Source: a virus (Duplodnaviria; Caudoviricetes). From it: DNA of 64,000 bases. Positions 7,159 to 37,748 of this stretch are shown one piece after another. The stretch lies in the IMG/VR virus record IMGVR_UViG_3300050514_000135, positions 33,102-97,101 of that record. One strand, given 5' to 3'. The notes below the pieces were generated by a model that saw only the letters and a list, made by a program, of their open reading frames with translations, made no database searches and was not told where the DNA came from. A program made the translations under genes and the position numbers. Each line of letters opens with the position of its first letter. Position 1 is the first letter of the stretch.

Positions 7159-7785
7159 TCAGATCATGAACAGGTTGATCGGGTGCCCCTGCAGCGTCGC
7201 CGAGCCGTACTTCTGGCAATAGTCGGCGTGCAGGTCGTCGCGCCGGACGGGCGCGCTCGCGTCGTTCGCGTAGTACCAGAAGCTGCCGTCCTGCAGCACG
7301 ACGACGACGGCCTGGCCCGACGACAGCGCGTCGAGCTGCGCTTGCATCGCGGGCGGGAGCATCGCCTTCAGCTGGTTCGGCATGGGTGGGGTGCCGCCCG
7401 GAAACGCGGTCGGGACCTGGACAGCGACCACACCCGCGGTGAAGCCCCACTGCGTGAGCTTGACCTGGTCCACGGTGCACACGGCGGCAGGTGGGAGAGG
7501 CGGGGGCGTGGCGGTCGTCGTCGTGGACGCGGTCTTGTCCTTGTTCAGGTACCAGATCGCGGCTGCGCCGAGAGCGAGCGCTCCGAGCACCCAAGGCGCG
7601 GCGCTCGGGTTCGCCTGGAGCTTGCCCTCACGCGCGAGCGCGGCTCGCTTCGCGGAGGGCGACATCTTGTGGTACCAGAGCGCGCCGCAGACCGCGCCCG
7701 GGTTCTGCGCCGACTGTGACGCGCCGCGCACGCAGTCGCGCATCCACTTCTTCGGCGGTCTTCGCGGGTTGGTTTGCATCTTCAT
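7159..7785 (-). CDS. Membrane protein (NP tag, TM, HPxxxF C-terminal tag)
   Basis: MQTNP and LQANP, TM WVLGALALGAAAIWYL, ends LQGHPINLFMI. Confidence 0.75.
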   Translation of the reverse strand: MKMQTNPRRPPKKWMRDCVRGASQSAQNPGAVCGALWYHKMSPSAKRAALAREGKLQANPSAAPWVLGALALGAAAIWYLNKDKTASTTTTATPPPLPPAAVCTVDQVKLTQWGFTAGVVAVQVPTAFPGGTPPMPNQLKAMLPPAMQAQLDALSSGQAVVVVLQDGSFWYYANDASAPVRRDDLHADYCQKYGSATLQGHPINLFMI

Positions 7786-8483
7786 GGTCCGGGTCCAGAG
7801 TAAAAGTTTGGCTGTCGATGGAGCGTCGCGATCGTGTTCGCCTGGTAGTGACAGTCGGCCGTGAGCAGGTAGACCGTGTCCCCGTTGTCCGGATTGACGG
7901 GGTTGTTGGTGCGCTGCAGCGAGAGGAGCAGGATGCCGTCGGGCTCGAAGTTCGTCGGGTCGAGGGGGACGGGGATCTCGCTCGTCATGTGCCGGAAAGC
8001 TGAGCCAGGCGGCGCCTCGGTGGTGAAGACGGTCGTGCCCGTGAGGTCGTAGTTCTGCTGGTTGAAACCCTTCGCGTACGTCCAGGTGTAGCTCCAGGTG
8101 ACCTCGTTCGTTTCCGTGCCGTCCGTGAGCCAGTGCGCGTGCAGGAAGACCGGCGAGTTGAGCGCGTAGTCGTGCTGGAAGTGGTAGACGATGTCGACGC
8201 TCCGGCCGAGCGCGAAAGCGTACGCGCGAAACGCGCTGCCGCCGATGCTCTGTCGCGTCGGGTCACTGATGTCCGTGCCGGGCGTGTAGATCTGCCCGAC
8301 CATGTCCCTCCACCCGCCGTTCTGCGACGTGTAGAAGTTGATGTTGCCGAGCACGTTCAGGAGGCTGAGCGTCGTCGCCGCCGTTTCTTTTAGTCCCCTG
8401 CGCCAATTGCCCATCGCAGAGTGAAGCGACTTCTCGCCGCCGGAAGCTGAAAGCAAACCTAGAAGTCGACGTGTTGCTGACAT
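7782..8483 (-). CDS. Putative virion/spike protein with an SLHS N-terminal tag
   Basis: LLGLLSASGGEKSLHSAMGNW leader followed by a beta-rich domain. Confidence 0.65.
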   Translation of the reverse strand: MSATRRLLGLLSASGGEKSLHSAMGNWRRGLKETAATTLSLLNVLGNINFYTSQNGGWRDMVGQIYTPGTDISDPTRQSIGGSAFRAYAFALGRSVDIVYHFQHDYALNSPVFLHAHWLTDGTETNEVTWSYTWTYAKGFNQQNYDLTGTTVFTTEAPPGSAFRHMTSEIPVPLDPTNFEPDGILLLSLQRTNNPVNPDNGDTVYLLTADCHYQANTIATLHRQPNFYSGPGP

Positions 8484-8486
8484 GGA

Positions 8487-9074
8487 TCACACCATGAAGA
8501 AGTCGGCGGGGTGTCCGTTGAGAGCTGGCGTGCCCTTGGTCACGCTCGCGCCGACGAACTTCGCCAGCGCGGCGTTCTCGGCGTCGTCCGAGACCCACTT
8601 CGTGCCGTTCCACTTGTAGAAGCCGCAATCGACGGTCGAGAACGTGTGCGCGTTCTTGTTCGAGACGTAGTCGGCCTTCGGAGCGGGCCACTGCGCAACC
8701 GGTTGGGTCTTGTCCGGCGGCACGTACAGCTTGTACGTCGTGGGCTTCGACTTGACGTACGTCGTGAGCATCGCGTCCGTGATCGGGCACGGGAGAGCGC
8801 TCGGCGTCTCGGCCTTCGCCTCGGTGTCGCGCGACATCCACCACCAGATCCCGGCCGCGAGGAGACCTCCGCCAATGATCCACGGCAGCGCGCTCGGGTT
8901 CTCCTGGAGAGACTTGTTGCCAGCGATCTCGTCCGCGTACCTCTCGGCGTCCGCGTATCGATTGAAGACGCGCAGCACTTGGTTGTGCCACATGACGAAG
9001 TACGCCTGGTTCACGTTCGAGTAACGGATCGTGATCCCGTTCCCGACCTGCACGACACTTTGACGCCTCGCCAT
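8487..9074 (-). CDS. Membrane protein (small domain, LQENP, TM, HPADFFMV)
   Basis: ATG at 9074 (MARRQSVV); LQENP, TM WIIGGGLLAAGIWWWM, ends GHPADFFMV. Confidence 0.75.
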   Translation of the reverse strand: MARRQSVVQVGNGITIRYSNVNQAYFVMWHNQVLRVFNRYADAERYADEIAGNKSLQENPSALPWIIGGGLLAAGIWWWMSRDTEAKAETPSALPCPITDAMLTTYVKSKPTTYKLYVPPDKTQPVAQWPAPKADYVSNKNAHTFSTVDCGFYKWNGTKWVSDDAENAALAKFVGASVTKGTPALNGHPADFFMV

Positions 9075-9076
9075 CG

Positions 9077-9502
9077 TTACACCATGAAGAAGTCGGCTGG
9101 GTGACGCGCACCGGCGAGCGACTTCACGTAAGCGCAGTACTGGTTCATCAGGTTCGGACTCTTGACCGGCGCGCTGTTCTTGTCCTTGTAGTACCAGAAC
9201 TCGCCGTTTCCGAGCACCAGCACGTACGGCCTGCCGAACGGGAGGTCGGCCGGCGCGAGCTTGGTGGTGACGAGGAACTCGTAGGTCGAGGGGAACGGCA
9301 GCGTGATGTTCGTGGTGTTGCCGGCGAGCTGCTTCTCGACGAGCCACGCCTCGAACTTCGTCTTGTCGATGGGTAGGCAGCTGCCAGGCAGGGGTTGGAT
9401 CGGCTCAGCGCTGGAGCTCGCGCCCTTGCTCGTTCCTGACAGCAGCCACCACGCGCCCAGTACGCCAGCGCCGACCGCCCACGGGACCCAGTTGGTCGCC
9501 AT
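9077..9502 (-). CDS. Membrane protein, paralog of 7159..7785
   Basis: ATG at 9502; N-terminal TM; VLVLGNGEFWYY..SAPV shared with 7159..7785; ends HPADFFMV. Confidence 0.75.
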   Translation of the reverse strand: MATNWVPWAVGAGVLGAWWLLSGTSKGASSSAEPIQPLPGSCLPIDKTKFEAWLVEKQLAGNTTNITLPFPSTYEFLVTTKLAPADLPFGRPYVLVLGNGEFWYYKDKNSAPVKSPNLMNQYCAYVKSLAGARHPADFFMV

Positions 9503-10857
9503 TACGGTTGGTTCACTCCCCAGCGCTCCTTGTTCGGAGAGCTGTAGGCCCAGATCCCGGTCTGTCGAAAAACTTTTTCGGCCTTGTCCACGGTGTGCTC
9601 CAGTGCCGTTCCCCGAGCATACCCCAGTTGGCCGTACTGCACCGTGCCCTCGCTGACCCTGTACCCATCTGGGTTGATTAGTTCCCAAGTGGCGTGCTTG
9701 TGGACACGAAGCGTGAACACGCGCCCCGGGTCGTCTGCAGAGCCGTACTTGATGAGCGCGGTCTTGTTCCCGTTCGTGAAGGTGACCGTGTACGCGAGCG
9801 GGTTCTGCTGCAGGGAGAGGCCGGACGCTGCCTTGGGCGCGCCGACGACGATGCCCCCGACCACGACCGCGGCGACGCCCGCGAGCGCGACAGCGCCCCA
9901 CGGGAAGCCTGAGCTCTCGGTCGATCCCAAGCCAGGACTTGGTGTCGCTGTCGAGATCCCCGAGCTCGGCAGCGGCGCCGCCTCGTTCGTGCTCATGTAG
10001 TCCGCCGGCAGGACCACGCCTTTGGCGCACGACGCGCCGAGCGTGAAGAAGTCAGCCGGGTGGGGGGCGCCCGCTATGAAACAGGACGCCCCCGGCGCTT
10101 TTGGGTCCATCGCGTTCCACCTCTCCGCGAGGACCGCCGCGAGCAGCACGGGCAGCATGCGCGAGCCCTGGTAGATGTGGTCAGCGTAGCCCTGCGGGTC
10201 GAGGTCGGTGCAGCCGACCATGATGAGTCCGCCGCGCCGGCGCTTCGCCTTCCACGGCGGGGCCGGGTAGTCGATCGAGTAAGGCGTCGTCGCCGGCGGC
10301 ACGCCCACGTGCACCGACGTCGCCGGCACGTTGATCTCGGGCACCGGTGTGTCGGCTGCATAGGCTTCGGTGTTGCTCGTGAGCTTCTCCCAGAGCCAGT
10401 TCGCGGTCTCGGTCGTGCTCGCGTAGGGCGGGACCACGCTCGAGTACGAGTCGAGGAACAGGCGCTCGTTGTTTGCGGCGAGCGCCGCGAAGTCGAGCCA
10501 CGGCTTCATCCCGGCCGGGTTCAAGACGTGCTTGACCTTGTCGAGGTAGCCGACGTGGATCCCGTCGACGGCGACGACCGCGTCGACGCGCCCGCCGTCG
10601 CTCGACGAGAGCACCTGCGCGACGCCCTGGCAGCTCGCGCTGAACCCGAGCAGCCCGACTCGCAGCGGCGTCACGCCCGGCGCGTACTTCGCGATCATCG
10701 CTCGCACGCCGCCCCCGTACGGCGCGAGCGACTGCGCCCACGAGTCGGGGTTCGGCAGGTTGACGAACTTCGTCGGGCGCTTGAAGGCGGACTTCACCTG
10801 GTTCACGGGTATGCCGCCGTGATTCCAGGCGATCAGGACGTCCGCCTCCTCGGCCAC
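9502..10857 (-). CDS. Membrane-anchored alpha/beta-hydrolase-fold protein with a C-terminal extra domain
   Basis: GFSAS nucleophile elbow, VAVDGIH, DHIYQ; internal HPADFF; TM then LQQNP and ~95 aa domain. Confidence 0.65.
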   Translation of the reverse strand: MAEEADVLIAWNHGGIPVNQVKSAFKRPTKFVNLPNPDSWAQSLAPYGGGVRAMIAKYAPGVTPLRVGLLGFSASCQGVAQVLSSSDGGRVDAVVAVDGIHVGYLDKVKHVLNPAGMKPWLDFAALAANNERLFLDSYSSVVPPYASTTETANWLWEKLTSNTEAYAADTPVPEINVPATSVHVGVPPATTPYSIDYPAPPWKAKRRRGGLIMVGCTDLDPQGYADHIYQGSRMLPVLLAAVLAERWNAMDPKAPGASCFIAGAPHPADFFTLGASCAKGVVLPADYMSTNEAAPLPSSGISTATPSPGLGSTESSGFPWGAVALAGVAAVVVGGIVVGAPKAASGLSLQQNPLAYTVTFTNGNKTALIKYGSADDPGRVFTLRVHKHATWELINPDGYRVSEGTVQYGQLGYARGTALEHTVDKAEKVFRQTGIWAYSSPNKERWGVNQP

Positions 10858-10860
10858 GGC

Positions 10861-11415
10861 TCACACTTCCTGCACGAGCGCGTACGAGAGCCCGCCGAGC
10901 GCGTCGGCCGTGCCGGTGGCGCCGGTCACGCGGAGCTTCACCGTCTGGTTGACGCTGGGCGTGTGGAAGGTCTCGGCAGTCGGCTGGAAGTTCTCGTTGT
11001 TCGTGTTGGTGACCGGCGTGAGGAACGCGCCGTGATCGGCGTGCAGCACGGCGTTCGTGTTCGCGTCCACCCACTCGATCCCGATATTGGTCGTCTCGCC
11101 CGTGTAGTTCGCGAGCGTGAAGTGCGCGGTGAGCCGGTAGTTCTTGTTCCCCGTGAGAGTGAACACGCCGTTCAGCGGGTTGTACGGGATGTCGCCGTAA
11201 CCGGGCGTGTCCATCACGATGTCGGTGTTGGCGGCGAGCGACTGCCCACCACCGGCCGAGTATGAGGTCTGCACGTAGTCCTTGGCGACCGCCTGCGACG
11301 GGTGCGAGGACTGCTGCGAGACGCCGAGGATCCACTGCCCGATCGGGCTGCCGAGACCAAACTGCGAGGCGACCTGCATCGCCAGACCATGGAGTTTAGA
11401 ACGAGCCATGCTCAC
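10861..11415 (-). CDS. Putative virion protein, C1q/BclA-like beta domain; paralog of 6591..7154
   Basis: Shared N-terminal ~30 aa; NGVFTLTGNKNYRLTA beta pattern. Confidence 0.65.
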   Translation of the reverse strand: MSMARSKLHGLAMQVASQFGLGSPIGQWILGVSQQSSHPSQAVAKDYVQTSYSAGGGQSLAANTDIVMDTPGYGDIPYNPLNGVFTLTGNKNYRLTAHFTLANYTGETTNIGIEWVDANTNAVLHADHGAFLTPVTNTNNENFQPTAETFHTPSVNQTVKLRVTGATGTADALGGLSYALVQEV

Positions 11416-11786
11416 GCCTTCGCTTCGATGTTGGCTGCAGCAGCTGCTGCCGCCGCCTCTTTCTCGATCCGCACGTCCTCGTCGAGCTTCTTGTCGATGG
11501 CGCGCGCGGCGAGCTGGGTCCTGACGGCTACGACGACCGATACAGCGAACCAGATCAGGAGCATCGCCAGGAACGCTGCCTTGGGCGCGTGAGCGCCGGG
11601 CACGAAGCCGGAGAGGGCGAAGCCCGCGGCGAAGACGAGCAGGCGCTCGGCGGTCTTCCGAGCGTTCGTGTGCCGGTCCATGAGCTTGAACTGCTTCTTC
11701 CAGTCAGGCTCGTAGTCGTCGGGCGGGAGCATGTCTCGGAACTGCTCCTTCTCTTTGCCTTGCAATCCTTTTTGTTCGATGGCCAT
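11412..11786 (-). CDS. Two-TM membrane protein
   Basis: Two hydrophobic helices; AAGGAA RBS. Confidence 0.65.
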   Translation of the reverse strand: MAIEQKGLQGKEKEQFRDMLPPDDYEPDWKKQFKLMDRHTNARKTAERLLVFAAGFALSGFVPGAHAPKAAFLAMLLIWFAVSVVVAVRTQLAARAIDKKLDEDVRIEKEAAAAAAAANIEAKA

Positions 11787-11795
11787 CTCGTTCCT

Positions 11796-12095
11796 TTACT
11801 TCACAGGCACCGCGACGACCAGCGCGAGCTCCCCGTCCGGGTCGTCGTAGGTGAACTTCGGTCTTTCGTCGGGGTCCTCGGTCTCGCGCGGGAGTTCGCG
11901 CCGAGCCGCGGTCCAACCTTCGTCGGTGTACCCGCGGCACTCGCCGGTTGTGTCGATCAGGTGCACGTGGAGACTGCCCATGTACCCGACGTCGCGCGCG
12001 GCTTCGTGCAGGATGTCGCTCGGATCCGTGCCCTCGACCAACTTTGGCTTCGTCTTCTTGCCCACGACGGTGATCTCGTATCCCATGCCGCTCAC
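11796..12095 (-). CDS. Hypothetical protein
   Basis: GTG at 12095 overlaps the upstream TGA. Confidence 0.5.
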   Translation of the reverse strand: MSGMGYEITVVGKKTKPKLVEGTDPSDILHEAARDVGYMGSLHVHLIDTTGECRGYTDEGWTAARRELPRETEDPDERPKFTYDDPDGELALVVAVPVK

Positions 12096-12928
12096 CAGTA
12101 TCCGTAAAAGAATATGTAGTCGACTTGGCAATTGGCGTTCGACTTCGGGCCGAGCACAGCCGTCGGGCGCAGGTTCGTTGTGTTCAGTGGCAGCGTCAGC
12201 GTGATGTCGCCATCGAAGAGCGTGGTTCCGTTGCTGATGTCGAGAACCTGGACGTGAACCTTGGTGTCGTTGGGCAGCGCATACATGCGAACCTCCATCA
12301 CGCGAGGCCCGCCAGTGGTCGGGTCACCGATGATCGCGTTCGCCTTACTGATCACTGCCGCGCTCTTGGTCGCCGTCGCCGCATTGTCTGTTGAGATGAT
12401 CGTTAGGTCGGTATCGCCCGTGCTCGCTCCGAGAACGATTCGATTGCCGGTGGCAGCAGGATCGGCGCCGCCGCCGATAACCGCGTTGTTGGTTCCGATC
12501 GAAACGACCGCGTCTGCCGTCAGTGCGACGATCGCCAAACGATGGCAGAAGAAAAACCCTCCGACTCCTGCCACCGCTCCGCGGCACATTCCTGGGTCGG
12601 TGAAGTTGTGCCCGACAAGCACGTTGGCCGTGCTGGTCGTCGTGTTCACGCGCGATGAAGCGGTGCGGAGATCCGCGTTCGTCAACGCTGGGGTATTCGA
12701 ACCGGAAAGAGTGTTGCTGACGATCGCGAGATTGCTGATAGTGCCGCCCGCCGCGCTCGTCGGCGCGATATAACGAAAAGTTCTACCCTTCAGCGCCGTC
12801 GCGACGGCTGCCGGCAGCGCGGCAAAGTCGGGAACGTTCGCGCCGATGGTCGCCCCGGTGATGGTGACAGCGTTGCCCGCTACTAGTGAGCGCTCGCCGA
12901 CAGCGTCGTCGTGTACGGTGATGGGCAT
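12092..12928 (-). CDS. Putative spike/receptor-binding protein, lectin-like beta domain
   Basis: Thr/Ala/Gly/Asn-rich and beta-rich; ends VDYIFFYGYW; lies in the spike block. Confidence 0.6.
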   Translation of the reverse strand: MPITVHDDAVGERSLVAGNAVTITGATIGANVPDFAALPAAVATALKGRTFRYIAPTSAAGGTISNLAIVSNTLSGSNTPALTNADLRTASSRVNTTTSTANVLVGHNFTDPGMCRGAVAGVGGFFFCHRLAIVALTADAVVSIGTNNAVIGGGADPAATGNRIVLGASTGDTDLTIISTDNAATATKSAAVISKANAIIGDPTTGGPRVMEVRMYALPNDTKVHVQVLDISNGTTLFDGDITLTLPLNTTNLRPTAVLGPKSNANCQVDYIFFYGYW

Positions 12929-14223
12929 TAGGAGAACAATCCGATCGAGGCGCCGTTGTTGGCGTTCAGGATAGAGCTCTGCGGGGCGGCGACGATGGTC
13001 GCCCAGGTCACGGCTGCGGTCCCGCCGATGATCGCGTCAGACGCGCCCGTGATGGTCGGTGTGGCGTTGAACGTGAGCTTTCCTCCCGACCGCGTGCGGA
13101 CTCCGGTTCCACCGCTTCCCGTGCCCCAGAGTAGATCGTTGCCACTCAAGAAAGCATCGCACCTCACCTCGCCGTCCTCGACGAGTACGGCATCGCTCGT
13201 GGCGTCGAACACTGCCGCAGTACCGACGCGGGCGACGCCACCGTAGCGACAGCGCCAGCCGTTGTTGCCAGACTGCGAAAACAGCGTGTCGTAATCGAGG
13301 AAGGCGACCGTGCCGTTTTGAAAGGTCGGGCGAGACCGACATAGGCAGCCGAAGTAGGCCACGGTGCTGCCCGGGGCGGCGTGGATGACGCCCGTGTCGA
13401 TGAAGCACTCACACATGACCGCGCTCACGGGACAGTGGACGCGGCAGCCGTAGAAGAGCGGCGAGTTGGTGACCGTCGCGAGCGGCAGGACCGAGACGCA
13501 CACGTCGGCTTGCGTAAGGTACAAGTCCGACACGACGATCTGAGTACCGTTCGTGGTGAGCGCTCCGCCGAACTGAGCGGACAGGTTGTTGATCGCGAGG
13601 TACCCGATCTGAGTGAGGCTCTCGATCACGAACGTGTTACCCGCGGCGGCCGCGGCGGCGGTCGGGTTTCCAGGGATGGGGCTCGCGGCGAGGTTCACGC
13701 TGCCCCACGGGCTCGTGCGGTACACTCCGCCCCCGCCGTCCTTGTCGAGCCAGGCGAGCGCCCCCACGGTGCCACTCGTCAGTCGAACGCGTTGACCGGT
13801 GCGACCGGCTCCCATGCCGGCCTCGGTGACCGAGCTCGGCGTGTTCGTCGCGCGGTTCAAGGCCGTGACGGCGGAGAACCCGCCGCCGGGAGACGTATAG
13901 GTCGTCGTGGCGACGCCCTTGATTCGGAGGCAACCGGCGGAGCCGAGCGTGAACGTGAAGATGCACGGGTCGGTCGATGGCACGTCGGTCAAGTACGTGA
14001 CGGTCGTGTCCCCGACGATGTTCCAGACCACGCCCACGCGGCGCTGGCGCTCGGCGTCGGTCTTCAGCGCGGTGCCGGAGGTGAGGCCGGTGTTCGTGTC
14101 GAGTCCTGCGACCGGGTCGATGAACCACGCGGTCTGCGTCGAGGACGCGCCCGTGAGCGGTGCCACGCCCACCGAGACATTGAGATTCGCGTTCGGGGAG
14201 AGGATGACTTGCGGAGTCGTCAT
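12928..14223 (-). CDS. Spike/tailspike-like beta-helix protein (paralog 1)
   Basis: WFIDPVAGLDTNTG..ALKT..E..RR motif typical of the start of pectin-lyase-like folds. Confidence 0.7.
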   Translation of the reverse strand: MTTPQVILSPNANLNVSVGVAPLTGASSTQTAWFIDPVAGLDTNTGLTSGTALKTDAERQRRVGVVWNIVGDTTVTYLTDVPSTDPCIFTFTLGSAGCLRIKGVATTTYTSPGGGFSAVTALNRATNTPSSVTEAGMGAGRTGQRVRLTSGTVGALAWLDKDGGGGVYRTSPWGSVNLAASPIPGNPTAAAAAAGNTFVIESLTQIGYLAINNLSAQFGGALTTNGTQIVVSDLYLTQADVCVSVLPLATVTNSPLFYGCRVHCPVSAVMCECFIDTGVIHAAPGSTVAYFGCLCRSRPTFQNGTVAFLDYDTLFSQSGNNGWRCRYGGVARVGTAAVFDATSDAVLVEDGEVRCDAFLSGNDLLWGTGSGGTGVRTRSGGKLTFNATPTITGASDAIIGGTAAVTWATIVAAPQSSILNANNGASIGLFS

Positions 14224-15485
14224 GAGCGCAACCCCGCCATCGCTCCGTTATTGAGATTCCACATCGAGCTCTGAGCGGCGGCCGCGACCGTTGCCCACGT
14301 CACCGCCGCGGCTCCACCGAGCACGACGTCGCCGCCGGTCGATGTGATCGTCGGTTGGTTACCAGCGCTGTTCCAGGAGATGCCTCCCCTCGATCGCACC
14401 TGCACCGCGCCGCCGGTGTTCGTGTTGTTTAGACCCCAAAGAATCGCGGTATTGTCCATCTGCGCGAGGACGTCGATCACGACGTTGAACGAACCAACAC
14501 CGGTCCGGTCGAAACTACCGACGGCAGCTTGGACAGAAACGAACGCACCCAAGTTCGCCTGTATCTGCGCGTTCTGTAGGAACGACGGGGCTACTGCAAA
14601 GATGATGCGTCCCTGGTTAGCCAAGACTGTCGCGAAAGCCGCATGGCCGGAGATAATGAGAGTGGCTAGACCGCTCGACAGTGTGGCCACGTTAGAACAG
14701 CCGTTCAGACGTGGGTTACTGCCAATAACGAAACCCAGTTGCTGAGTCTGCATGCGACAGCCGGTCACCAAGAACTGGCTCGCTGATCCTGGGCACTGCG
14801 CGAAGGACAAGCGTCCGCCGGGGGCGTCCGCCTCAATCGCTAAGTTTTCTACCGATCCCACCCCGTTGAACAGCAGGCAATCGATCCCCGCTATGCGGGT
14901 GCCAAGGGTCTCGATAGCGAACGTGTCATTGACGGCCGGAGAGACGGCGGCCAGCGTCGTCGGGCTGATGAATTGAGACACACGCGCGGTGTTCGCCCCG
15001 AGATCAGCCAGAACCCACGCGAAGGCGCCGGAGTTGGCCCCGCTCGTGAGTCGCACGCGCCGCTGAACGTGAGCAGCCCAGACAATAGGAGTAGTCGTGT
15101 CCGCCAGTCGCGCGTCTTGACTGGTCGCCGCGTTCGTCGCCGTGAACGCAGTGACGACGCCGGTCGCTTGCAGTGTCGGAGTACCGGTCCAATTGATTCG
15201 CTGGTTCGAGACGTCGACGAGAGCGTCGATGAACTGAGTTGGAAAGTCCCCGGTCAACGCGACGCTGATCGTGCCGATTCCTGGCGCGAAGGATCGACCG
15301 TTCCACCGCCGAGCAAGTTCGGCCAAGGTCAATAGAGGGGAAGCGGCCGTACCGACGTTGTTGTCGTTGCCAGTCGTACTGCTCACTCCCCAATCGATCT
15401 GCGTGAGGTAACCCTCGTCCGTTCCCACGCCTGTCACCACGGCGAGGTTGGTGTTCGGAGAGAGAAGAACTTGTCCCGTCGTCAT
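14220..15485 (-). CDS. Spike/tailspike-like beta-helix protein (paralog 2)
   Basis: WGVSSTTGNDNNVGTAASPLLTLAELARR; both termini similar to 12928..14223. Confidence 0.7.
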   Translation of the reverse strand: MTTGQVLLSPNTNLAVVTGVGTDEGYLTQIDWGVSSTTGNDNNVGTAASPLLTLAELARRWNGRSFAPGIGTISVALTGDFPTQFIDALVDVSNQRINWTGTPTLQATGVVTAFTATNAATSQDARLADTTTPIVWAAHVQRRVRLTSGANSGAFAWVLADLGANTARVSQFISPTTLAAVSPAVNDTFAIETLGTRIAGIDCLLFNGVGSVENLAIEADAPGGRLSFAQCPGSASQFLVTGCRMQTQQLGFVIGSNPRLNGCSNVATLSSGLATLIISGHAAFATVLANQGRIIFAVAPSFLQNAQIQANLGAFVSVQAAVGSFDRTGVGSFNVVIDVLAQMDNTAILWGLNNTNTGGAVQVRSRGGISWNSAGNQPTITSTGGDVVLGGAAAVTWATVAAAAQSSMWNLNNGAMAGLRS

Positions 15486-15486
15486 C

Positions 15487-27635: not shown

Positions 27636-27647
27636 CGTCTTCCTCCT

Positions 27648-27836: not shown

Positions 27837-27839
27837 GGC

Positions 27840-28130: not shown

Positions 28131-28143
28131 GTCGCTCTTCCTT

Positions 28144-29154: not shown

Positions 29155-29213
29155 CGACGGTGTGGAATCCAGCGACGGTTGCCGCGAAAACTGCTCGGGG
29201 CTACCGTGCCGCG

Positions 29214-29957: not shown

Positions 29958-30056
29958 CGACCGGTTCCGCGACGTGCTGCTCAACGAGGGCTGCACGGTC
30001 GCGGGCATCGTCCTCCTGGCGTTCGCGATCTCGCTCATGCTGTCGCTGACGATACT

Positions 30057-30611
30057 GTGGTGGCGATCGTGATCGAGATCTCCCGCCGGTCCTTCCTGCT
30101 CGGCACGGCGTCGCTGATCCCTAGTCGGGGAGTCGCCGCGCCGCCGGTCGACGGGACCGTGCTCATCGGCGACAGCCACGCCTACATGATGAACCGCGCC
30201 TTCCATGATGTCGCGCACGCCTACGACAGGCGCGTCGCGGTGGTCGCGCACGGCGGGTCGAGCGTGCGGCAGTGGCTCGTCAAGAAGTGGGTGCAGCGAG
30301 AGGTGCTCGCGAAGTACCCGGACGCGACGCTGCTCCTGGTCTCGCTCGGCACGAACTGCACGCGCTCGGAGCGACCGCGCCTCGCGGACGACATCCGGCG
30401 CCTGGTGTCCGAGAGCGGCGTGAGCGTGTCGTGGCTCCTGCCCCCGCCGATGAAGTTCGACACGACGTACCTGCGCGACGCCGTCAAGCAAGTCACCGGC
30501 GTCTTCCCGATCGACCCAGGACCTCTCCCGATGCTGCGCGACAAGATCCACGCGACGCCGAAGGGCTACTACATGTGGGCGCAGACGATCGCCGACACGC
30601 TCTGGTCGTGA
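30057..30611 (+). CDS. SGNH/GDSL hydrolase with a Tat-like signal
   Basis: SRRSFL; IGDSHA, G, LGTN, DKIH blocks. Confidence 0.8.
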   Translation: MVAIVIEISRRSFLLGTASLIPSRGVAAPPVDGTVLIGDSHAYMMNRAFHDVAHAYDRRVAVVAHGGSSVRQWLVKKWVQREVLAKYPDATLLLVSLGTNCTRSERPRLADDIRRLVSESGVSVSWLLPPPMKFDTTYLRDAVKQVTGVFPIDPGPLPMLRDKIHATPKGYYMWAQTIADTLWS

Positions 30612-30612
30612 C

Positions 30613-30783
30613 TCACGTCAAAGGGCGAGCCCAGAACACGCCGGCGTCGTCGACCGCGACCTCGTACTTCTTCTGCTCGTGATTCACGAAGCCCAGCCAG
30701 CGCACCTTCCCTGTCGGGCGCTGGGGTTCATCGGGGCCCGGCTCGTGCGGGCCCTCGTGACTGCCGTTACCGTAGAGCAGCAC
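30613..30783 (-). CDS. 56-aa hypothetical protein containing VRWLG (missing from the ORF track)
   Basis: Manual translation from the GTG just after the 30786 stop: MLLYGNG...GKVRWLGFVNHEQKKYEVAVDDAGVFWARPLT. Confidence 0.45.
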   Translation of the reverse strand: MLLYGNGSHEGPHEPGPDEPQRPTGKVRWLGFVNHEQKKYEVAVDDAGVFWARPLT

Positions 30784-30785
30784 GA

Positions 30786-31079
30786 TCAGGTCGGCGTGTA
30801 GAACGCGCCGAGCGCCGAGCGGAGACTCTGCTCGCCGTCGACCGTGCGGAACTCGCCCGTGTCGGTCCCGAGCGCGGCGGTGCGTGTGATGAAGCGCCCG
30901 ACCTTGGAGTGGAGCGACTGCTGACCACCGACGGACATCGCCGAGGAGTGGAGCGCGGCGGCGTCGGGCAGGAGGTGCGTGTCGAGCAGCGCGGCGCGCA
31001 TGTAGTGGCGACCGAGCGGCGAGTGGAGCGAGATCTCGCCACCGGCCGCTTTCAGGAGACTGAGGTGCTTGCTAGCCAT
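30786..31079 (-). CDS. Small protein made of GGExSLHSxLG repeats
   Basis: GGEISLHSPLGRHY / GGQQSLHSKVGRF / DGEQSLRSALGAFY; TAGACT -10 box upstream. Confidence 0.7.
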   Translation of the reverse strand: MASKHLSLLKAAGGEISLHSPLGRHYMRAALLDTHLLPDAAALHSSAMSVGGQQSLHSKVGRFITRTAALGTDTGEFRTVDGEQSLRSALGAFYTPT

Positions 31080-31089
31080 GACCCGGAGT

Positions 31090-31386
31090 CTACTCCTTAT
31101 CCGCGGCCGGGCACAGCCCCGCGGCGCGGTTCCGGCGCAGGATGCGCACCCAGCGCGCGAAAGCGTGCGCCACCGCCTTCGTGACCGAGCCCGTGCCGCT
31201 GCACCACTTGCAACCGAGGTTCACGTCCACGGTCCGGTAGGCGCCGTCGACCTCCACGACTCGCTTGACGGCCCGGTGACCGCGCCCGCCGCACGGGTCG
31301 CACGGGCAGAGCGTGTCGCGGTGCGCCTCCGGCTGCTTCAGCCGCTCGAGTTTGAAGCGGTCGCTGTCCTTGCGTCGCTTGCCCAC
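31090..31386 (-). CDS. DnaJ-type Zn-finger small protein
   Basis: CDPCGGRG...CKWCSGTG. Confidence 0.6.
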   Translation of the reverse strand: MGKRRKDSDRFKLERLKQPEAHRDTLCPCDPCGGRGHRAVKRVVEVDGAYRTVDVNLGCKWCSGTGSVTKAVAHAFARWVRILRRNRAAGLCPAADKE

Positions 31387-31395
31387 GGCCGGAGT

Positions 31396-31656
31396 CTAGT
31401 CCGTTTTTTTCTTTGGGTCGGGCACTTTCTGGACGCCGCTCGGCGTCAACTTCTGCGAGACCCGCTCCATTTTTTGGGAGCTCGCTCGGATCTTCTGACG
31501 CGCTAGCTTCATCGCCTCGTGCGGGTCCGTCTCGCGGATCGCCTGCACCTCGGACGTGACGGGGTCGTCCTCGTCTTCTTCGTCGACCGGAATGATCGGC
31601 CTCACCGAGGGGAATGGGTCGGGTAATTCAAGAGCCGGGTCCGTTGCCATGTCCAT
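31396..31656 (-). CDS. Hypothetical protein
   Basis: GAGGAGG RBS; coupled to the upstream gene. Confidence 0.55.
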   Translation of the reverse strand: MDMATDPALELPDPFPSVRPIIPVDEEDEDDPVTSEVQAIRETDPHEAMKLARQKIRASSQKMERVSQKLTPSGVQKVPDPKKKTD

Positions 31657-32024
31657 CACCTCCTCATTCGCTGCTCCTTGAGCGTCCTCATGATCTCGTT
31701 CGACTCGTTCAGTGCCTGAGTCGTCTCTTCCAGCTTTTCGGAGACGAGCTTCAGCGTCTCGCGCGACGTCGTCAATTCCCCGGTCACCTGGACCACGACG
31801 GCGTTCGTCTTGTCCGCTAGCTTCAACATCTCGCCCGTGTTCGCCTTCGCGTCGTCGAGTCTCGCCTGCTTCTCGGACAGAAGTTTCATCGTTAGCCAGA
31901 CCACGACGCTCGCCAGGACGACGATTGCGAGGCCCGGCAGGCCGGACGTCGCCAGCTTCTCCGCCCCCGACGCGATACCGTCCGGCGTTTGGAGGAAGCT
32001 TAGGCTTGTCAGCCACAGCGTCAC
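31656..32024 (-). CDS. Holin-like single-TM coiled-coil protein
   Basis: GLPGLAIVVLASVVVWL TM plus coiled coil, directly downstream of the endolysin. Confidence 0.55.
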   Translation of the reverse strand: MTLWLTSLSFLQTPDGIASGAEKLATSGLPGLAIVVLASVVVWLTMKLLSEKQARLDDAKANTGEMLKLADKTNAVVVQVTGELTTSRETLKLVSEKLEETTQALNESNEIMRTLKEQRMRR

Positions 32025-32851
32025 GCGGCCTCGGGGAGCGTCGCTGCCTCGACCTCTGCCGCGGCCCACGTCTTCGCCCCTACCACCCCGTCCACTTTGA
32101 GTGCCTCGCCCGTGACGACGTCCTTGTGCTTGCCCTGCCACGCGATCGTGGCGAGCTCGGTGAGCGGTCCGAAGGCGCCGTCCGCGACGATGCCGAGGAA
32201 GCGCTGCCAGTCCTTCACGGCGGTGCCGAACGAGCCGCGGCGCAGCGTCGGCTGCTTCGGCGCGTTGAAGACGCCCTGCGCGACGCGCTTGAGTTTCTGC
32301 ACGACCGTGGGCTGGCCGCTCGGGAACGGCTCGCCGAGCTCGTCGCAGCGGCGCTTGATCGCGGCGGAGAGCGCTTTCATGTGGTTCGTGATGCGATCGG
32401 CGACCGTCTTGCCAAAGCCCTCATAGTAGTGGTTCGCGTGCATGCCGGAGCTGACGCCCCAGAGGTCGCCGCGCGCGCAGGCATCGAGCACGTTGTTCTT
32501 CGGCTTGCTCGCCGTGCCGACGATGTAGCGCTCCATGTCCGCGCAGGCGTCGACGTCGTTGCTGTAGCTACGGAAGCAGACCGAGTACGTCGTGGACGTG
32601 CCGTCCGCGTTCGGGTGCGTGTCCTTGTAGAGGAACGAGGTCTGCGCGTCGCACGGGGGCACGCCGGCTTGCACGGCCCCGCGGTTCCTCGAGATCCTGC
32701 CCTCGACGCTGCTCCAGCCTCGTCCGTAGCGCGTCTCGAGAAAGTCGACGCCCTGGCAGACCTGCGACTCGACCAACGACGGCGGGCGCCCGAAGTTCCG
32801 GTTGAACCCGAGGTCGATGAACACCTTCTCGTCGGCGTGGATGCCCATCAC
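32021..32851 (-). CDS. Endolysin with a C-terminal peptidoglycan-binding domain
   Basis: PG_binding_1 pattern LRRGSFGTAVKDWQRFL..ADGAFGPLT...VDGVVGAKTW; N-terminal ETRYG..W..N.GA catalytic-like region. Confidence 0.82.
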   Translation of the reverse strand: MMGIHADEKVFIDLGFNRNFGRPPSLVESQVCQGVDFLETRYGRGWSSVEGRISRNRGAVQAGVPPCDAQTSFLYKDTHPNADGTSTTYSVCFRSYSNDVDACADMERYIVGTASKPKNNVLDACARGDLWGVSSGMHANHYYEGFGKTVADRITNHMKALSAAIKRRCDELGEPFPSGQPTVVQKLKRVAQGVFNAPKQPTLRRGSFGTAVKDWQRFLGIVADGAFGPLTELATIAWQGKHKDVVTGEALKVDGVVGAKTWAAAEVEAATLPEAA

Positions 32852-33357
32852 GTCACCACGACGACGTTCTTGCCCTGGTTCGGGTCCCAGTAGCGGCTCG
32901 CGACGCGGTCACCGTTGTCCCACTCCCAGTTCCACTGCATGCTCGAGTCCGGCGGCCACGAGACGGCCCACGGCGGCGCGATGCACACCTCGCCGTGCGA
33001 GATCCACGTCTTGTTGTTGTTGAAGGCCCAGAAGAATAAGAACTGATCCCATTGCTGAGCGAGGTCGCGCGTGCTGAGCGGGCCTCCGTACAAGCGCCAA
33101 CGCGGGCGCACGTTCGGGTCCTGCAGCGCGAGTCGCTGCTCGGGCGACATCGAGTTGTAGAGCACGGTGTCGATCAGGATGCCGCGCACGAACGCGCTCG
33201 AACTCGCGTCGCAGGGCAGCCCGTTGCCGGCTGCGACGAACCCGCGCGGCAGGCCGAGTCGGCCGTCTCCCGCGTCCTCGGGCGCGCGGAGTATGTCCGC
33301 CGGCGGCGCGGGCGGCGGAACGAAGTCACCGGGTGTGATCCAGTCGACCACGATCAC
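32848..33357 (-). CDS. Hypothetical Trp-rich protein
   Basis: GTG at 33357 after AAGGA; overlap-coupled. Confidence 0.6.
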   Translation of the reverse strand: MIVVDWITPGDFVPPPAPPADILRAPEDAGDGRLGLPRGFVAAGNGLPCDASSSAFVRGILIDTVLYNSMSPEQRLALQDPNVRPRWRLYGGPLSTRDLAQQWDQFLFFWAFNNNKTWISHGEVCIAPPWAVSWPPDSSMQWNWEWDNGDRVASRYWDPNQGKNVVVVT

Positions 33358-33608
33358 TCCTTGTTGATCGGCGTGCGCGCGAGCCACTCGTCGTCGAGGT
33401 GGTTCGTCTCGATATACGCGACGGCGCCCTTCAACGCGCGCACCCACATCTTGGGGTCGACGACCTTGCCGCTCGTCATGGCGAAGTCGAACATGTCGAC
33501 CATGATCGGCGCGATGTGGTCGGCGACGACGGGCTCGGTCTCCGCGAGCGTCGTGAGCAGGTTCACGAGCGGGAGCAGGTTCGGTTGGATCGGTACGGGC
33601 ACGCTCAT
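33354..33608 (-). CDS. Hypothetical protein
   Basis: ATGA-coupled. Confidence 0.55.
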   Translation of the reverse strand: MSVPVPIQPNLLPLVNLLTTLAETEPVVADHIAPIMVDMFDFAMTSGKVVDPKMWVRALKGAVAYIETNHLDDEWLARTPINKE

Positions 33609-33886
33609 CGCGGTGGCTCACTTTCCTTGTCGCAGCGGACCCAGGTCCGGATCTCCTCCTTGAACCGCGCGTCCTCCGCCTTGCGCTCGGGGCAGTCCGG
33701 TCCCTGGCCCACGCACTTCATCGCGAGCCGCGCCTCGTGCGCGGCGACGACCTTGCCGAGGTCGGCCTCCGTGCACGGCTCCTGCGATGTCGCGCCGCAA
33801 CCCGCGCTCGCGCCGGTGAGTCCGTACAGCACACCCATCGTAAAGAGATAGGCGCCGAGCAGGGCTGGAAGTTTCACTCTTGACAT
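33605..33886 (-). CDS. Putative lipoprotein in the lysis region
   Basis: Hydrophobic N-terminus ending SAGC (lipobox-like). Confidence 0.55.
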   Translation of the reverse strand: MSRVKLPALLGAYLFTMGVLYGLTGASAGCGATSQEPCTEADLGKVVAAHEARLAMKCVGQGPDCPERKAEDARFKEEIRTWVRCDKESEPPR

Positions 33887-33896
33887 CCTACCACAC

Positions 33897-34136
33897 TCAT
33901 TCCTCTTGCTTTTTCGCGGGGATGCGGATCTGACCGGTGACGCGGCGGGCGCGCTCGAGGTCGTAGGCGAGGCCCTTGAGCTCCTCCTCGAACGGCGTGA
34001 TGGGTCCTGCCTGCCACGGTTTCTTCTCAGCCCACGCGACGACGGCGTCGACTATCGCGCCCTCGGCGCGTCGGATTAGCTCGGACTTTGGGTCGCTCAC
34101 GCGTAACAAGATAGGCGCCGCCGGCGAGCCCGGCAA
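33897..34136 (-). CDS. Hypothetical protein (start probably near 34100)
   Basis: Plausible helical ORF; overlaps the 3' end of the upstream gene. Confidence 0.4.
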   Translation of the reverse strand: MPGSPAAPILLRVSDPKSELIRRAEGAIVDAVVAWAEKKPWQAGPITPFEEELKGLAYDLERARRVTGQIRIPAKKQEE

Positions 34137-34851
34137 TCACGCCGAGCGTCAGAAGCGGCGACGTGCCGCTGGCTGCCCCACTGCTGACCGACGCGCCCGA
34201 CAGCCAGGGCAGGACGTGCGCCTCGCTGACCGGCGCGAGGAGCTTGCCCAGCGACTGGTGCGGGTACTCCGCGTCCTTGTAGCGGTAGTACCAGAGCGCT
34301 CCCTGGTTGAAGACGCCCTCGCCCGGCTTCGGCATCGGAGGGACGGCGCTCGCGGCCGGCAGATCGATCAGGCCGGCGGGCTTGAGCACGGCCTCGCGGA
34401 AGGCGTAGTCGCCGTTCATGTGCGAGTCGGTGGAGCCCTTGTCGCTCGTCACACTCACGAGATTGAACTTGCCCGCCGCGGCGTCCTTCGCCGCCTTCTG
34501 GTAGCCGGTGTAACCGGAGCCGAACGTCGAGTCCATGAGCACGACGCCGGCGACGTCGCCGCGGTCCGCGTCGTTGTTGAGAAGAGGGCTTACGAACCCG
34601 AGGCCCGCCGAGTAGCTCACGAAGACGAGCTTGCCGTCGATGCCGTACTTCTTGCGGATGTTGGGCGTGACGCGGCCGGAGCCGTCCTTGAACGAGCTGT
34701 AGAAGTTCGCGTACGCCGTCGAGCAGTACTTGTCCTCGCCGCCGCACACGAACCCGAGCGAGGCGGGGTCGAGCCCCACGAGCTTCGTGCCGGCGGGCCA
34801 AGCGACCTTCGAGGGAGGCGTCGCCTTCAGGAACAGCACGCCGTCGGTCAT
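34027..34851 (-). CDS. Tail-anchored alpha/beta-hydrolase-fold protein
   Basis: VSYSAG elbow, VVLMDS, PHQ; C-terminal TM then VRANP and poly-Arg. Confidence 0.65.
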   Translation of the reverse strand: MTDGVLFLKATPPSKVAWPAGTKLVGLDPASLGFVCGGEDKYCSTAYANFYSSFKDGSGRVTPNIRKKYGIDGKLVFVSYSAGLGFVSPLLNNDADRGDVAGVVLMDSTFGSGYTGYQKAAKDAAAGKFNLVSVTSDKGSTDSHMNGDYAFREAVLKPAGLIDLPAASAVPPMPKPGEGVFNQGALWYYRYKDAEYPHQSLGKLLAPVSEAHVLPWLSGASVSSGAASGTSPLLTLGVIAGLAGGAYLVTRERPKVRANPTRRGRDSRRRRRVG

Positions 34852-35474
34852 CGAGCACCCGGCTTCACTCGCACGGTCGCCCACACGATCCCGACGCCGA
34901 CGGCGACGATCGCTAGTCCCGAGAGTATGCCCATGCCCGAACCTCCCGGCCCCGTCGCGCCCGCACCGGCGAAAGCCTTCTCCAGGTACTCCTGCCTGAC
35001 CTTCACGCACTGCTCGTACGTGACGCCGCTCGGGCAGACCGAGGTCGGCACGGCCTGCGCGCCGTTGAACCCGAAGTGGTAGTGGCCCATGTCGCCGCAC
35101 GCGCCGAATTGCTTCCAGCGCCCGCCCCACACGCCGCCTTGCGATTCCCACCACTCGCCGAGCTTCGTGTGCGTCTCGCACGTGTTCGGGATGAGGTCGA
35201 GGTCGATCGCGTGACCGAGCGTGTGCATCGAGCGGCAGAAGTCCGCCTGCGAATAGCCGAGGTCGACCTGCTCCTGCTGCGCCGAGCACGTGCGACCTAC
35301 GGAACGGATCTTCGGCGACCAGCCGTGCGCGGTGGCGTACGCGATCAGCGCCTCGACCTTGGGTCGCACCGCGGGCACGAGGTCGTCGAGCGTCTTGGTC
35401 GGCTGGAAGAGTTCGACCGTCGCCGCTCCGAGCCACTGCACTCGCGCGCCGCGCTTCACCCACTGCACGCTCAT
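34848..35474 (-). CDS. Tail-anchored M15-family peptidoglycan peptidase with WLG leader
   Basis: GRT...Q, SMHTLGHAIDL, WGGRW...DMGHYH; leader MSVQWVKRGARVQWLGA; C-terminal TM. Confidence 0.82.
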   Translation of the reverse strand: MSVQWVKRGARVQWLGAATVELFQPTKTLDDLVPAVRPKVEALIAYATAHGWSPKIRSVGRTCSAQQEQVDLGYSQADFCRSMHTLGHAIDLDLIPNTCETHTKLGEWWESQGGVWGGRWKQFGACGDMGHYHFGFNGAQAVPTSVCPSGVTYEQCVKVRQEYLEKAFAGAGATGPGGSGMGILSGLAIVAVGVGIVWATVRVKPGAR

Positions 35475-36472
35475 AGGAGGAAGTACCAGACTGCGGCAGC
35501 AACCGCGGCGAGGCCCCCGACAACGACGACCGGCGACGTCCCGGAACCGGAGGACGAGCTCGACCCGCCGAACAACTGGTCCGAGAGGTCGGGCACGCCC
35601 GGGACGAGGTTCCCCTTCGGCCACTTCACGGTCGCGTTCAGCTTGTCCATGTACGCCTTGGCGAGCGTCGTGGGAGCGTTGGTGGGGCAGCTGAGCTGCG
35701 GCTCGTTCGTCGGCGCGCCGCGGATGAAGTACTCGCAGTCCTTCTTCAGCTTGAACTTCTGGAACGCGATCTCGTCCTGCCCGACCGCGGACCAGTCGAT
35801 CGGCTCGCCCGGCGCGGCGACCGGGCCGATGTAGCCGTTGTAGTAGACCGCGTAGTTGTAGTCGGTGCAGGTGAACTTCGAGTTGACGACGCCGATGTTC
35901 TTCGCCGCGCCGCACTCCTTGATAGACGTCGGCGTGAGCGTCTGCTCGCCCGCGGCGTCGTAGCTCTCCTTCGACTCGAGGTACCGCACCTGCCTCGGTG
36001 CCCAGCGCGAGTTCACGGGCGCCGGCGGACAGCCCGCCGCGGTCAGCGAGGCGTCGCTCGCGAGTCCCTTCGTGATCGCGAGGTCGCGCATCGTGAGGTA
36101 GGCGCGCACCGAATAGATCGCCCGGGCCGAGACCTTGGCCTTCGCCCCGACCGAGGACATCGTGTCGACGACGAGGTCCTCCATCGTGGAGCCGTGCGCG
36201 ACCGGGATCTTGCTACCGATCCACTCGCCGATGATCCCACCGATGATCCCGCAACCGACCGCGACTGCGGGGCCGGCCGCCGCGCACAGTCCAGCACCGG
36301 CGATCGTGCCGCCGACCTTGCCGTACGCCTTGAGAGACTCCTCGTCGATCGCGCCGCGCCGCGCGATGACCTCCTTCGTGAGCGCGTTGTTCTCGAGCTT
36401 GTCGTAGCCCGTGTATGCGCCGACGCGCCCGAGCCAGAGCACGCGCCGCGGCCTCACCCACTCGACGTTCAT
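35471..36472 (-). CDS. Membrane protein with WLG leader and glycine-zipper
   Basis: MNVEWVRPRRVLWLG; GxxxG zipper; C-terminal TM. Confidence 0.7.
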   Translation of the reverse strand: MNVEWVRPRRVLWLGRVGAYTGYDKLENNALTKEVIARRGAIDEESLKAYGKVGGTIAGAGLCAAAGPAVAVGCGIIGGIIGEWIGSKIPVAHGSTMEDLVVDTMSSVGAKAKVSARAIYSVRAYLTMRDLAITKGLASDASLTAAGCPPAPVNSRWAPRQVRYLESKESYDAAGEQTLTPTSIKECGAAKNIGVVNSKFTCTDYNYAVYYNGYIGPVAAPGEPIDWSAVGQDEIAFQKFKLKKDCEYFIRGAPTNEPQLSCPTNAPTTLAKAYMDKLNATVKWPKGNLVPGVPDLSDQLFGGSSSSSGSGTSPVVVVGGLAAVAAAVWYFLL

Positions 36473-37044
36473 GTCACCCACCAAGCGACTCCGACGATCG
36501 CGGCGATCAAGAGCAGGGGAGCGATCGACTGCTTGGCGCCGGTCGCGATCGTCGGCGGATTGAGCTGCTCCTTGATAGACGCGGCCCAGGTCTTGTAGCC
36601 GTCACCGGTCGGGTGGATGCCGTCATCCTTGGCGACGGTCGGCTGGTCGATCGTGCGCGCGTTCGCGGCGATGACCGCCGCGATGAGCTCGGGGTACTCC
36701 CACGGGAGCTTTCCCGGCATGAGCCAGACGACCTCAGCGCCGGAGCCGCGGATCTTCACCGCGAGCTCGTTGACCTGCGCCTTCAGCGTCGCCGCGGGTA
36801 CCTTCCCCTTCGTGTCGTTGCTGCCCAGCGAGACCAGCACGCGCTTAGGGGTCAGCGCGAGCGCCGTCGCGAGGTCGGCGGACGCGAGCCACTGCGCGAC
36901 CGTCGTCCCGGTCTTGGCGAACGCCTGGAAGGGCTCCGGCGCCAGCGCCTCCTTCAAGGGCACGGCGAGGCCCACGGCGAGCGAGTCCCCGATGAGCACC
37001 GTGGGCTTGTCCCCGACGGCCCCGAGCCACTGCACGCGCGCCAT
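36469..37044 (-). CDS. Tail-anchored SGNH hydrolase with WLG leader
   Basis: MARVQWLG; IGDSLA, SLGSND, DGIHPT; C-terminal TM. Confidence 0.82.
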   Translation of the reverse strand: MARVQWLGAVGDKPTVLIGDSLAVGLAVPLKEALAPEPFQAFAKTGTTVAQWLASADLATALALTPKRVLVSLGSNDTKGKVPAATLKAQVNELAVKIRGSGAEVVWLMPGKLPWEYPELIAAVIAANARTIDQPTVAKDDGIHPTGDGYKTWAASIKEQLNPPTIATGAKQSIAPLLLIAAIVGVAWWVT

Positions 37045-37748
37045 CAGATCCACCCCAGGAGGTACGCCGCGCCGCCGACCGCGAAGGCACCGAGCGCGAG
37101 CGTGCCGAGTCCGGGTCCCGAGCTCGCGGACGAGCTCAGCGGGTTCGCTCCGAGCCAAGCGGCCGCGGCGTTGCTGTAGCCGAACGCGCGACCCGGGTAG
37201 TCGGCGGAGACGCCGCCGGTCGAGCAGTCCGCGATCACGTTCCACCGATTAGGCGCTGTGCACTTGCTGCTGGTGCCGCACTTCACGCTGCCGGCGTTGT
37301 ACGCGATCACGGTCTTGATCGGGTTGCCGCCGTACTTGGTCATGAGTTCCGACAGCAGCTTCGCGCCGAGGTCGACGTTCAGCGCCGGGTCACTGAGGAG
37401 CTCGTTGACGGACACCTTCCTCCCCGCCTGGTCGCTCGCGGTAGCGGGCAGGAGCCCCATGAGTCCGTAGCAGCACGACGAGTGCGCGTCTTGCTTCCCG
37501 CCGCTCTCGGTCGCCATCACGCCGTCGACGAACTGCGGCCAGAGCTTGTACTTGGCCGCCGCGGCGTCGACGATGGCGCGCCACTGCTTCACCTCCTCGG
37601 GGAGCTTCAGGGCCTTCGCGCCCTCGTTCTCGATCTCGATGAGGCCCTCTGGTGTCCAGCGAGCTCGCGGGCCGCTGCAGCCGGACTCGAACCACTGCGC
37701 CGGCGTCGAGACGGCGCCGAGTCCGAGCATGTAGTCGAGCGGGTGCAT
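37044..37748 (-). CDS. Tail-anchored SLT lytic transglycosylase with HPLDY tag
   Basis: MATESGG, GLMGL, NVDLGAKLL, AYNAG; N-terminal MHPLDYMLGLG; C-terminal TM. Confidence 0.88.
   Translation of the reverse strand: MHPLDYMLGLGAVSTPAQWFESGCSGPRARWTPEGLIEIENEGAKALKLPEEVKQWRAIVDAAAAKYKLWPQFVDGVMATESGGKQDAHSSCCYGLMGLLPATASDQAGRKVSVNELLSDPALNVDLGAKLLSELMTKYGGNPIKTVIAYNAGSVKCGTSSKCTAPNRWNVIADCSTGGVSADYPGRAFGYSNAAAAWLGANPLSSSASSGPGLGTLALGAFAVGGAAYLLGWI

Follow-up and report, generated by a model that had tools for sequence, protein, structure and literature searches.

The capsid targeting sequence (CTS) of the tailed phage T4 is found only at the N-terminus, acts via the scaffolding core and is cleaved off by the prohead protease. 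In adenovirus, the N-terminal propeptides of pVI and pVII occupy the same hexon cavity, and the protease adenain cleaves at (M/I/L)XGX-G. The peptides that direct proteins into encapsulins and microcompartments are short, terminal or linker-embedded, portable and present in clade-specific variants, and they bind the interior of shells with an HK97 or bacterial microcompartment (BMC) fold, the cargo of which is soluble enzymes. How membrane-containing phages select membrane proteins for the particle is poorly understood, and we know of no shared address peptide described for the membrane proteins of PRD1. PRD1 is assembled from a phage-specific membrane patch, with no address signal described (PMC6356626). 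Here we analysed a 64,000-base stretch of viral DNA (hereafter named the window; bases 33102-97101 of the 97,101-base IMG/VR virus record IMGVR_UViG_3300050514_000135), in which a six-residue motif, HP[AIL][DN][FLY][FM] (hereafter named the HP tag), recurs. Judged from the sequences, the motif is real, conserved, modular and position-independent, and it is swapped for other leaders at the same sites in orthologs. We suggest tentatively, with a confidence a little short of even, that the HP tag is a docking peptide that, during assembly, draws membrane proteins to a receptor among the viral structural proteins.

Five tag sites and their conservation

The strict pattern gave five matches in the six frames of the whole 97-kb record, compared with none in each of 30 second-order Markov simulations. 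All five lie in well-supported genes (Table 1), three at the C-terminus (B, D and E), one internal (F) and one at the N-terminus of an SLT lytic transglycosylase, exactly where a first-pass annotation of the window had placed them, and the genes around these sites are on the minus strand. The SLT protein matches the PF01464 profile over residues 59-155 (69.5 bits against a cut-off of 21.3, E = 2.3e-19), and its start is 4 nt past the upstream stop codon. Two details needed correction. D starts at 9074 and not inside E; and the first-pass annotation had named F an alpha/beta hydrolase, a label that comes from a GFSAS elbow-like motif and one source annotation only, as the domain has no Pfam, PHROG or PDB sequence relative. 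A sixth, looser match, HPVDLL (46997-47014), was rejected as a tag: it is inside a conserved globular domain of a 180-amino-acid protein, the ortholog of which has DPAVDLC.

B and E are clear paralogs (BLASTP 2e-17). The BLASTP match between D and E is limited to the membrane helix, although a MAFFT alignment suggests a common scaffold; the five sites therefore fall into four contexts, or into three should D be remotely paralogous to B and E. The identity of 19 bp reported earlier between the tag regions of D and E (8489-8507 and 9079-9097) is exact. This stretch encodes ADFFMV in favoured GC-rich codons, and the His-Pro-Ala codons of D, E and F show synonymous differences, indicating that selection acts on the peptide. 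Thus the 19-bp identity needs no special cause beyond the same peptide written in preferred codons, and gene conversion as its source was rejected on account of the synonymous differences in the adjoining codons.

The tag was then sought in homologous proteins. In the IMG/VR relative IMGVR_UViG_3300006845_000026, whose proteins are 47-62% identical to those of the window, it is present in the hydrolase (HPSDFF), at the start of the SLT protein (M-T-HPLDLFM, with a GTG start and GGAGGA 9 nt upstream) and at four C-termini, and an additional small protein carries it at the N-terminus (MNQHPTDMF). All of the eight nearest SLT clusters begin with M-HP[LCV][DE][YFL][MFL], and residues directly past the tag vary freely in SLT orthologs. 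HP[AGS]D[FL]F is retained in the 10 long hydrolase clusters nearest to F in a large protein collection. The D-type homologs have N-terminal domains of several unrelated kinds, and all eight of their clusters end with GHPx[DES]xF plus 2-5 residues; the B orthologs of loci L002 and L007 also retain the tag. Thus the motif extends beyond B, D and E. Confinement to these three was the outcome that the first-pass annotation had named as fatal to its proposal, and the conservation instead covers at least four protein families at 47-85% identity. Of 36 collected tags, 34 have Phe at position 6 and 28 have Asp at position 4, whereas the invariance of His-Pro was demanded by the collecting pattern and is thus not independent evidence.

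The HP-type tag is limited to a narrow clade. We inspected hydrolase relatives in species genomes (the best 80 of 105; GTDB genome contigs, L025-L104), and the 895 called genes at these 80 loci, from Myxococcota and other metagenome-assembled genomes (MAGs), contained no HP tag in context; almost no WLG leaders, the second tag class of the window, were found within 8 kb. An exact-pattern scan of IMG/VR with HPAD[LF]FM found 11 loci, with a real terminal context only in the known relative; the other loci were mostly beside stop codons in that frame, none of them in terminal context.

Table 1. Tagged genes, their tags and neighbouring features of the window (positions in window coordinates)
Feature	Position	Strand	Description
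Gene B	7159-7785	minus	208 aa: small N-terminal domain, LQANP, one membrane helix, ectodomain, C-terminal tag
B tag HPINLF	7168-7185	minus	Protein ends GHPINLFMI
Gene D	8487-9074	minus	195 aa: small N-terminal 'cargo' domain, LQENP, membrane helix, ectodomain, C-terminal tag
D tag HPADFF	8496-8513	minus	Protein ends GHPADFFMV
Gene E	9077-9502	minus	141 aa: membrane helix, ectodomain, C-terminal tag
E tag HPADFF	9086-9103	minus	Protein ends RHPADFFMV
Gene F	9502-10857	minus	451 aa: hydrolase-like domain (residues 1-262), then internal tag
F tag HPADFF	10045-10062	minus	Residues 266-271, in PHPADFFTLGA
F, weaker second copy LPADYM	9991-10008	minus	Residues 284-289, 12 residues past HPADFF
F, downstream of tag			TLGASCAKGVV, LPADYM, linker, membrane helix, LQQNP, C-terminal small domain
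SLT lytic transglycosylase	37044-37748	minus	234 aa: N-terminal tag, C-terminal membrane helix
SLT tag M-HPLDYM	37728-37745	minus	Protein starts MHPLDYMLGLGA
WLG-leader cluster	34027-42147	minus	~11 single-pass membrane proteins with WLG-type N-terminal leaders: M15 peptidase, SGNH hydrolase, others
403-aa beta-rich protein	43750-44961	minus	Candidate capsid protein, candidate receptor
306-aa protein	48318-49238		Protease candidate

Exchange with WLG-type leaders

The SLT gene is flanked by the cluster of single-pass membrane proteins with WLG-type leaders, which form a sister tag class. The first-pass annotation had taken the HP motif to be a separable module, independent of position and exchangeable with the WLG leader, and the relatives bear this out on each point. 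Approximately 40 hydrolase clusters are short forms of ~260 residues that end at ...SCYVG, exactly where the tag of F begins. In a 73-kb virus (loci L008 and L013 of one record; L008:10001-11424), the hydrolase is likewise short and the post-domain piece of F is a separate 75-amino-acid gene ~400 bp downstream, the product of which starts with MFLHDLGAL and consists of a leader, CAKSVVLPxxYM and a membrane helix. All three positions of the tag are kept in relatives.

In more distant long hydrolases, the site of HPADFFTLG is filled by PFGWLTLG, PFHWLGLG, HPFAWVGASLG or VRWLAEP, and the second copy of F, in the form LPx[DNS][FY][MVI], is kept in more distant hydrolases than the HP tag. Similarly, the MHPLDYM site of more distant SLT orthologs is filled by full WLG leaders, MGKVQWVPDAPVVEWLGAV and MSKVTWIDDAPVLGLGAV, and further SLT orthologs have MLTWIEP..LASP..LGAV, MFAWLPAQHLQRLP.GGLGAV, MIYDHLGAV or MFLDAV at this site, with all of the leader types joining the same LGAV..WFDSGCG domain start. 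Because WLG-type and other leaders occupy the same site in orthologs of both SLT and the hydrolase, the HP and WLG tags are evolutionarily interchangeable modules, with the HP tag as a clade-specific substitute for a WLG-type leader on two unrelated proteins. Of all our results, we consider this exchange the strongest. The earlier remark that the motif is twice followed by LG holds for SLT and F, but the LG is part of an element that trails all leader types and is absent from the C-terminal HP copies.

Within one genome or clade, different proteins have similar tags. In L004, HPFAWVG of the hydrolase resembles HPFVGL of a D-like C-terminus; in the 73-kb contig (L008/L013), MFLHDLGAL resembles MFLDAV; and VRWLAEP, from the hydrolase of one clade, resembles VEWLAET and LTWIKET in L010. 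This is the likeness that ligands of one co-evolving receptor would show. The cargo domains are also shuffled between carriers, as one small domain is found in two of them with 60% identity (6e-27): residues 232-299 of the WLG protein at 39188-40087, where it follows the membrane helix, and residues 4-80 of L002:12045-12707, a D-type HP protein, where it precedes the membrane helix.

Two further observations concern tag-like ends. Small cargo-like proteins of other clades (L008:11495-12954 and L006:11182-12505) have W-type C-terminal tags right after the NP motif, and the W-type C-termini seen are NPSWTRVLG, NPTWTRVFG, SAWTRVFG, SWTKVFG, FWGKFLG, HWVKFLG and PWKRFMV. In the window, the protein encoded at 32848-33351 starts with MVDWITPGDFV, which contains a VxW element and a PxDFV element and is possibly a hybrid or degenerate tag.

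Topology, candidate receptor and proposed role of the tag

In the single-pass proteins encoded at 7159-42147, the WLG and HP tags are always on the same side of the membrane helix, and the LQxNP motif, the small cargo domains and the basic tails are on the opposite side. The tagged proteins have 2-18 cysteines each, mostly in even numbers, and all of these are on the tag side; the lysine and arginine residues are mostly on the NP side. Judged by the positive-inside rule and by the disulfides to be expected, the tag side looks extracytoplasmic. This leaves a paradox, as no Sec, Tat or lipoprotein signal was found in the tagged proteins, and by inspection the tag itself does not resemble a signal peptide, having 2-4 hydrophobic residues, no RR, no lipobox and C-terminal copies. 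The SGC of the SLT protein was considered as a lipobox and rejected. AlphaFold modelling of E from 18 sequences gave the ectodomain a predicted local distance difference test (pLDDT) score of 88-95 and the last eleven residues one of 54-67, so the model does not confidently place the tail against its own domain; Foldseek gave no known fold match for the modelled ectodomain (best E 0.09). The HP tag thus has the features of a short linear docking motif in the general sense, being a conserved short peptide in a flexible region that is portable between unrelated domains.

The candidate receptor is the 403-amino-acid beta-rich protein. It lies in a block at 42-51 kb in which no Pfam or PHROG family was found, and ten structural-block and tag proteins had no PHROG match. 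The protein has 69 relatives among 1.8 billion representatives, and its AlphaFold model is beta-rich with a pLDDT of 88. The fold matches of the model are weak and mostly jelly-roll, with nucleoplasmin on top, and among them are capsid proteins of SPV1, PRD1/PR772 (P3), P23-77 (VP17), HCIV-1 and PBCV-1. With Foldseek the best of these had E values of 0.011 (SPV1) and 0.016-0.04 (PR772/PRD1 P3), and VIA gave Z scores of 3.6-5.0 and a root-mean-square deviation of 2.7-5.6 over 86-166 residues. The ESM Atlas yielded nothing for this protein. The alignment of the major capsid protein candidate proved too divergent for scanning genomes, and a single-protein scan of viral contigs found nothing. We regard the 403-amino-acid protein as a capsid candidate and not as an established double jelly-roll protein.

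Taken together, these results are consistent with a scheme in which HPxD(F/L)F would be a short linear peptide that serves as an address. It would belong to a fast-evolving tag family that includes the WLG leader, as the form specific to this clade, and flexible ends or linkers would join it to single-pass membrane proteins of the virion, on the side of the ectodomain. The tag would most likely dock into a site on a virus-encoded structural protein, either the membrane-facing capsid shell or a vertex component. Docking would bring into the particle the cell-wall enzymes, SLT and the hydrolase-like F, and the small adaptors B, D and E, which carry varied cargo domains across the membrane. If so, a portable six-residue tag would make the selection of membrane proteins by membrane-containing phages directly testable and would give a handle for loading foreign proteins into such particles. 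A wider version, which we consider rather doubtful, is a peptide address code in which interchangeable tags of 6-20 residues (WLG, HP and others) load ~17 single-pass membrane proteins, and via these the cleavable lumenal cargo domains, into an internal-membrane particle. The two tag classes of one genome would then be two addresses, e.g. vertex and facet; or else the tags would mark a new signal-peptide-independent route for placing disulfide-rich ectodomains.

Several points weigh against docking. We infer the binding of a protein, the docking step itself and the identity of the partner, for which the first-pass annotation had looked to the proteins encoded at 42-45 kb, and we infer from context that the tagged proteins are virion members. 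The capsid assignment of the 403-amino-acid protein comes from weak fold matches (Foldseek E 0.01, VIA Z <= 5). In addition, an extracytoplasmic tag side would sit uneasily with a PRD1-style assembly, where the tag would have to dock to a capsid protein in the cytoplasm, and the likeness of tags within a genome could also be explained by recombination among tags or by adaptation to a host factor.

The tag, together with the LG(A) that follows it in SLT and F, may instead be a recognition or cleavage element of a viral maturation protease, i.e. a propeptide comparable to the T4 CTS or to those of adenovirus pVI and pVII, a function that may coexist with docking. The N-terminal and internal copies are indeed followed by a widely conserved LGA/PVG element common to the WLG leaders. 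The sequence of the 306-amino-acid protein makes it a protease candidate: its core is Cys-His-Asp-like (DCDG..., EHV..., YADPS), and ahead of the membrane helix it contains an internal WLG motif, VVWTKPRMQWLGQ. In P0149, an SLT ortholog of 342 amino acids, a domain of the retropepsin-like aspartic protease type (PF13650, PF13975) separates the MLTWLSEP leader from the SLT domain. However, the 306-amino-acid protein has no Pfam family, with no protease family identified by Pfam, and the C-terminal copies stop 2-3 residues past the motif without LG, where a cut would take off almost nothing. Protease recognition is therefore unlikely as the sole role of the tag, and we regard this explanation as an unlikely one overall.

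The topology gives rise to another explanation, namely that ectodomains without signal peptides use the tags as unconventional signals for export or membrane insertion. This would account for the cysteine residues being all on the tag side with lysine and arginine mostly on the other, and for enzymes that act on peptidoglycan in the absence of a Sec, Tat or lipobox signal. Yet B, D and E have a signal-anchor-like helix upstream and nevertheless carry the tag at the far C-terminus, the tag of F comes after the domain, and known export signals are not position-independent, so with only 2-4 hydrophobic residues in the tag we find an export role decidedly unlikely.

Binding of the tag to a host factor, such as a protease or chaperone of the PDZ type that recognizes hydrophobic C-termini, or a role as an interfacial lipid anchor, seems to us improbable. 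Class II PDZ ligands are hydrophobic C-termini, which the F-M-V, F-M-I and F-M-F endings resemble; clade-specific tag types could follow host clades, and the tags contain aromatic residues. The N-terminal and internal copies, however, cannot offer a free C-terminus, WLG and HP tags coexist in one genome, and the most conserved positions are His, Pro and Asp, which are ill-suited to plain lipid insertion. Finally, the idea that the motif has no common function, being inherited in one paralog family (B and E, perhaps with D as a remote member) and due to chance at the other two sites, can hardly be credited given that 8 SLT and 10 hydrolase ortholog clusters have kept their copies while the adjoining residues vary, and that the simulations produced no chance match.

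Two known motifs were also considered and rejected: the beta-clamp-binding motif QL[SD]LF, as there is no Gln in the 36 collected tags and the carriers are membrane or cell-wall proteins, and the HPD motif of J-domains.

The virus and its relation to described systems

The first 3,726 bases of the record recur at its end as a direct terminal repeat with 99.97% identity (record bases 1-3726 and window 60275-64000), and thus the unique genome is 93,375 bases. It is probably complete, in a circular or a terminally redundant form; IMG/VR labels the record as linear, and CheckV gives a completeness of 57%. The GC content is ~66%, and no tRNA or Rfam family was found in the record. No head-tail genes or prohead protease were found in the genome, and no similar phage was found by DNA match in the INPHARED phage collection. 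Most of the hydrolase relatives (best 80 of 105) are from MAGs of Polyangiaceae or other Myxococcota, and some of these best 80 sit inside contigs of 1-3.5 Mb, which points to prophages. Given also that relatives encode integrases and that one SLT ortholog cluster comes from a Polyangiaceae MAG, the host is probably a member of the Polyangiaceae and the virus is probably temperate. Our literature searches found neither this virus group nor tags of this kind described, and the group (~93 kb, probably temperate, without head-tail genes and with a jelly-roll-like capsid candidate) seems to be undescribed.

We treat the resemblances to the T4 CTS, to the encapsulin and microcompartment peptides and to the adenovirus propeptides as analogies drawn from general knowledge of these systems, with full membership established in none. 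As with the T4 CTS, a short leader unrelated to the fold of the cargo would direct different proteins into a particle, and cargo-like small domains are joined here through a possible cleavage motif, LQxNP. In contrast with the extreme N-terminal position of the CTS, however, the tag is found on membrane proteins at the N-terminus, internally or at the C-terminus, with three of the five copies C-terminal and one internal. In adenovirus, unrelated precursors have in common a short peptide, followed by a Gly-containing element, that binds a jelly-roll capsid protein on its inner face. The scheme proposed here would be similar, but the propeptides have no sequence similarity to the tags, and a double jelly-roll hexon and an adenain-like protease are not established here. 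The encapsulin and microcompartment peptides share with the HP tag that they are short, portable, terminal or in linkers, and vary between clades in their motif, whereas the carriers here are viral single-pass membrane proteins and the shell candidate looks jelly-roll-like. Finally, although the genome is approximately six times larger than that of PRD1 and the capsid fold match is weak, the virus resembles the PRD1-type internal-membrane phages, with their P7 transglycosylase and P16 vertex-membrane linker, in having a putatively virion-associated SLT enzyme and many small single-pass membrane proteins.

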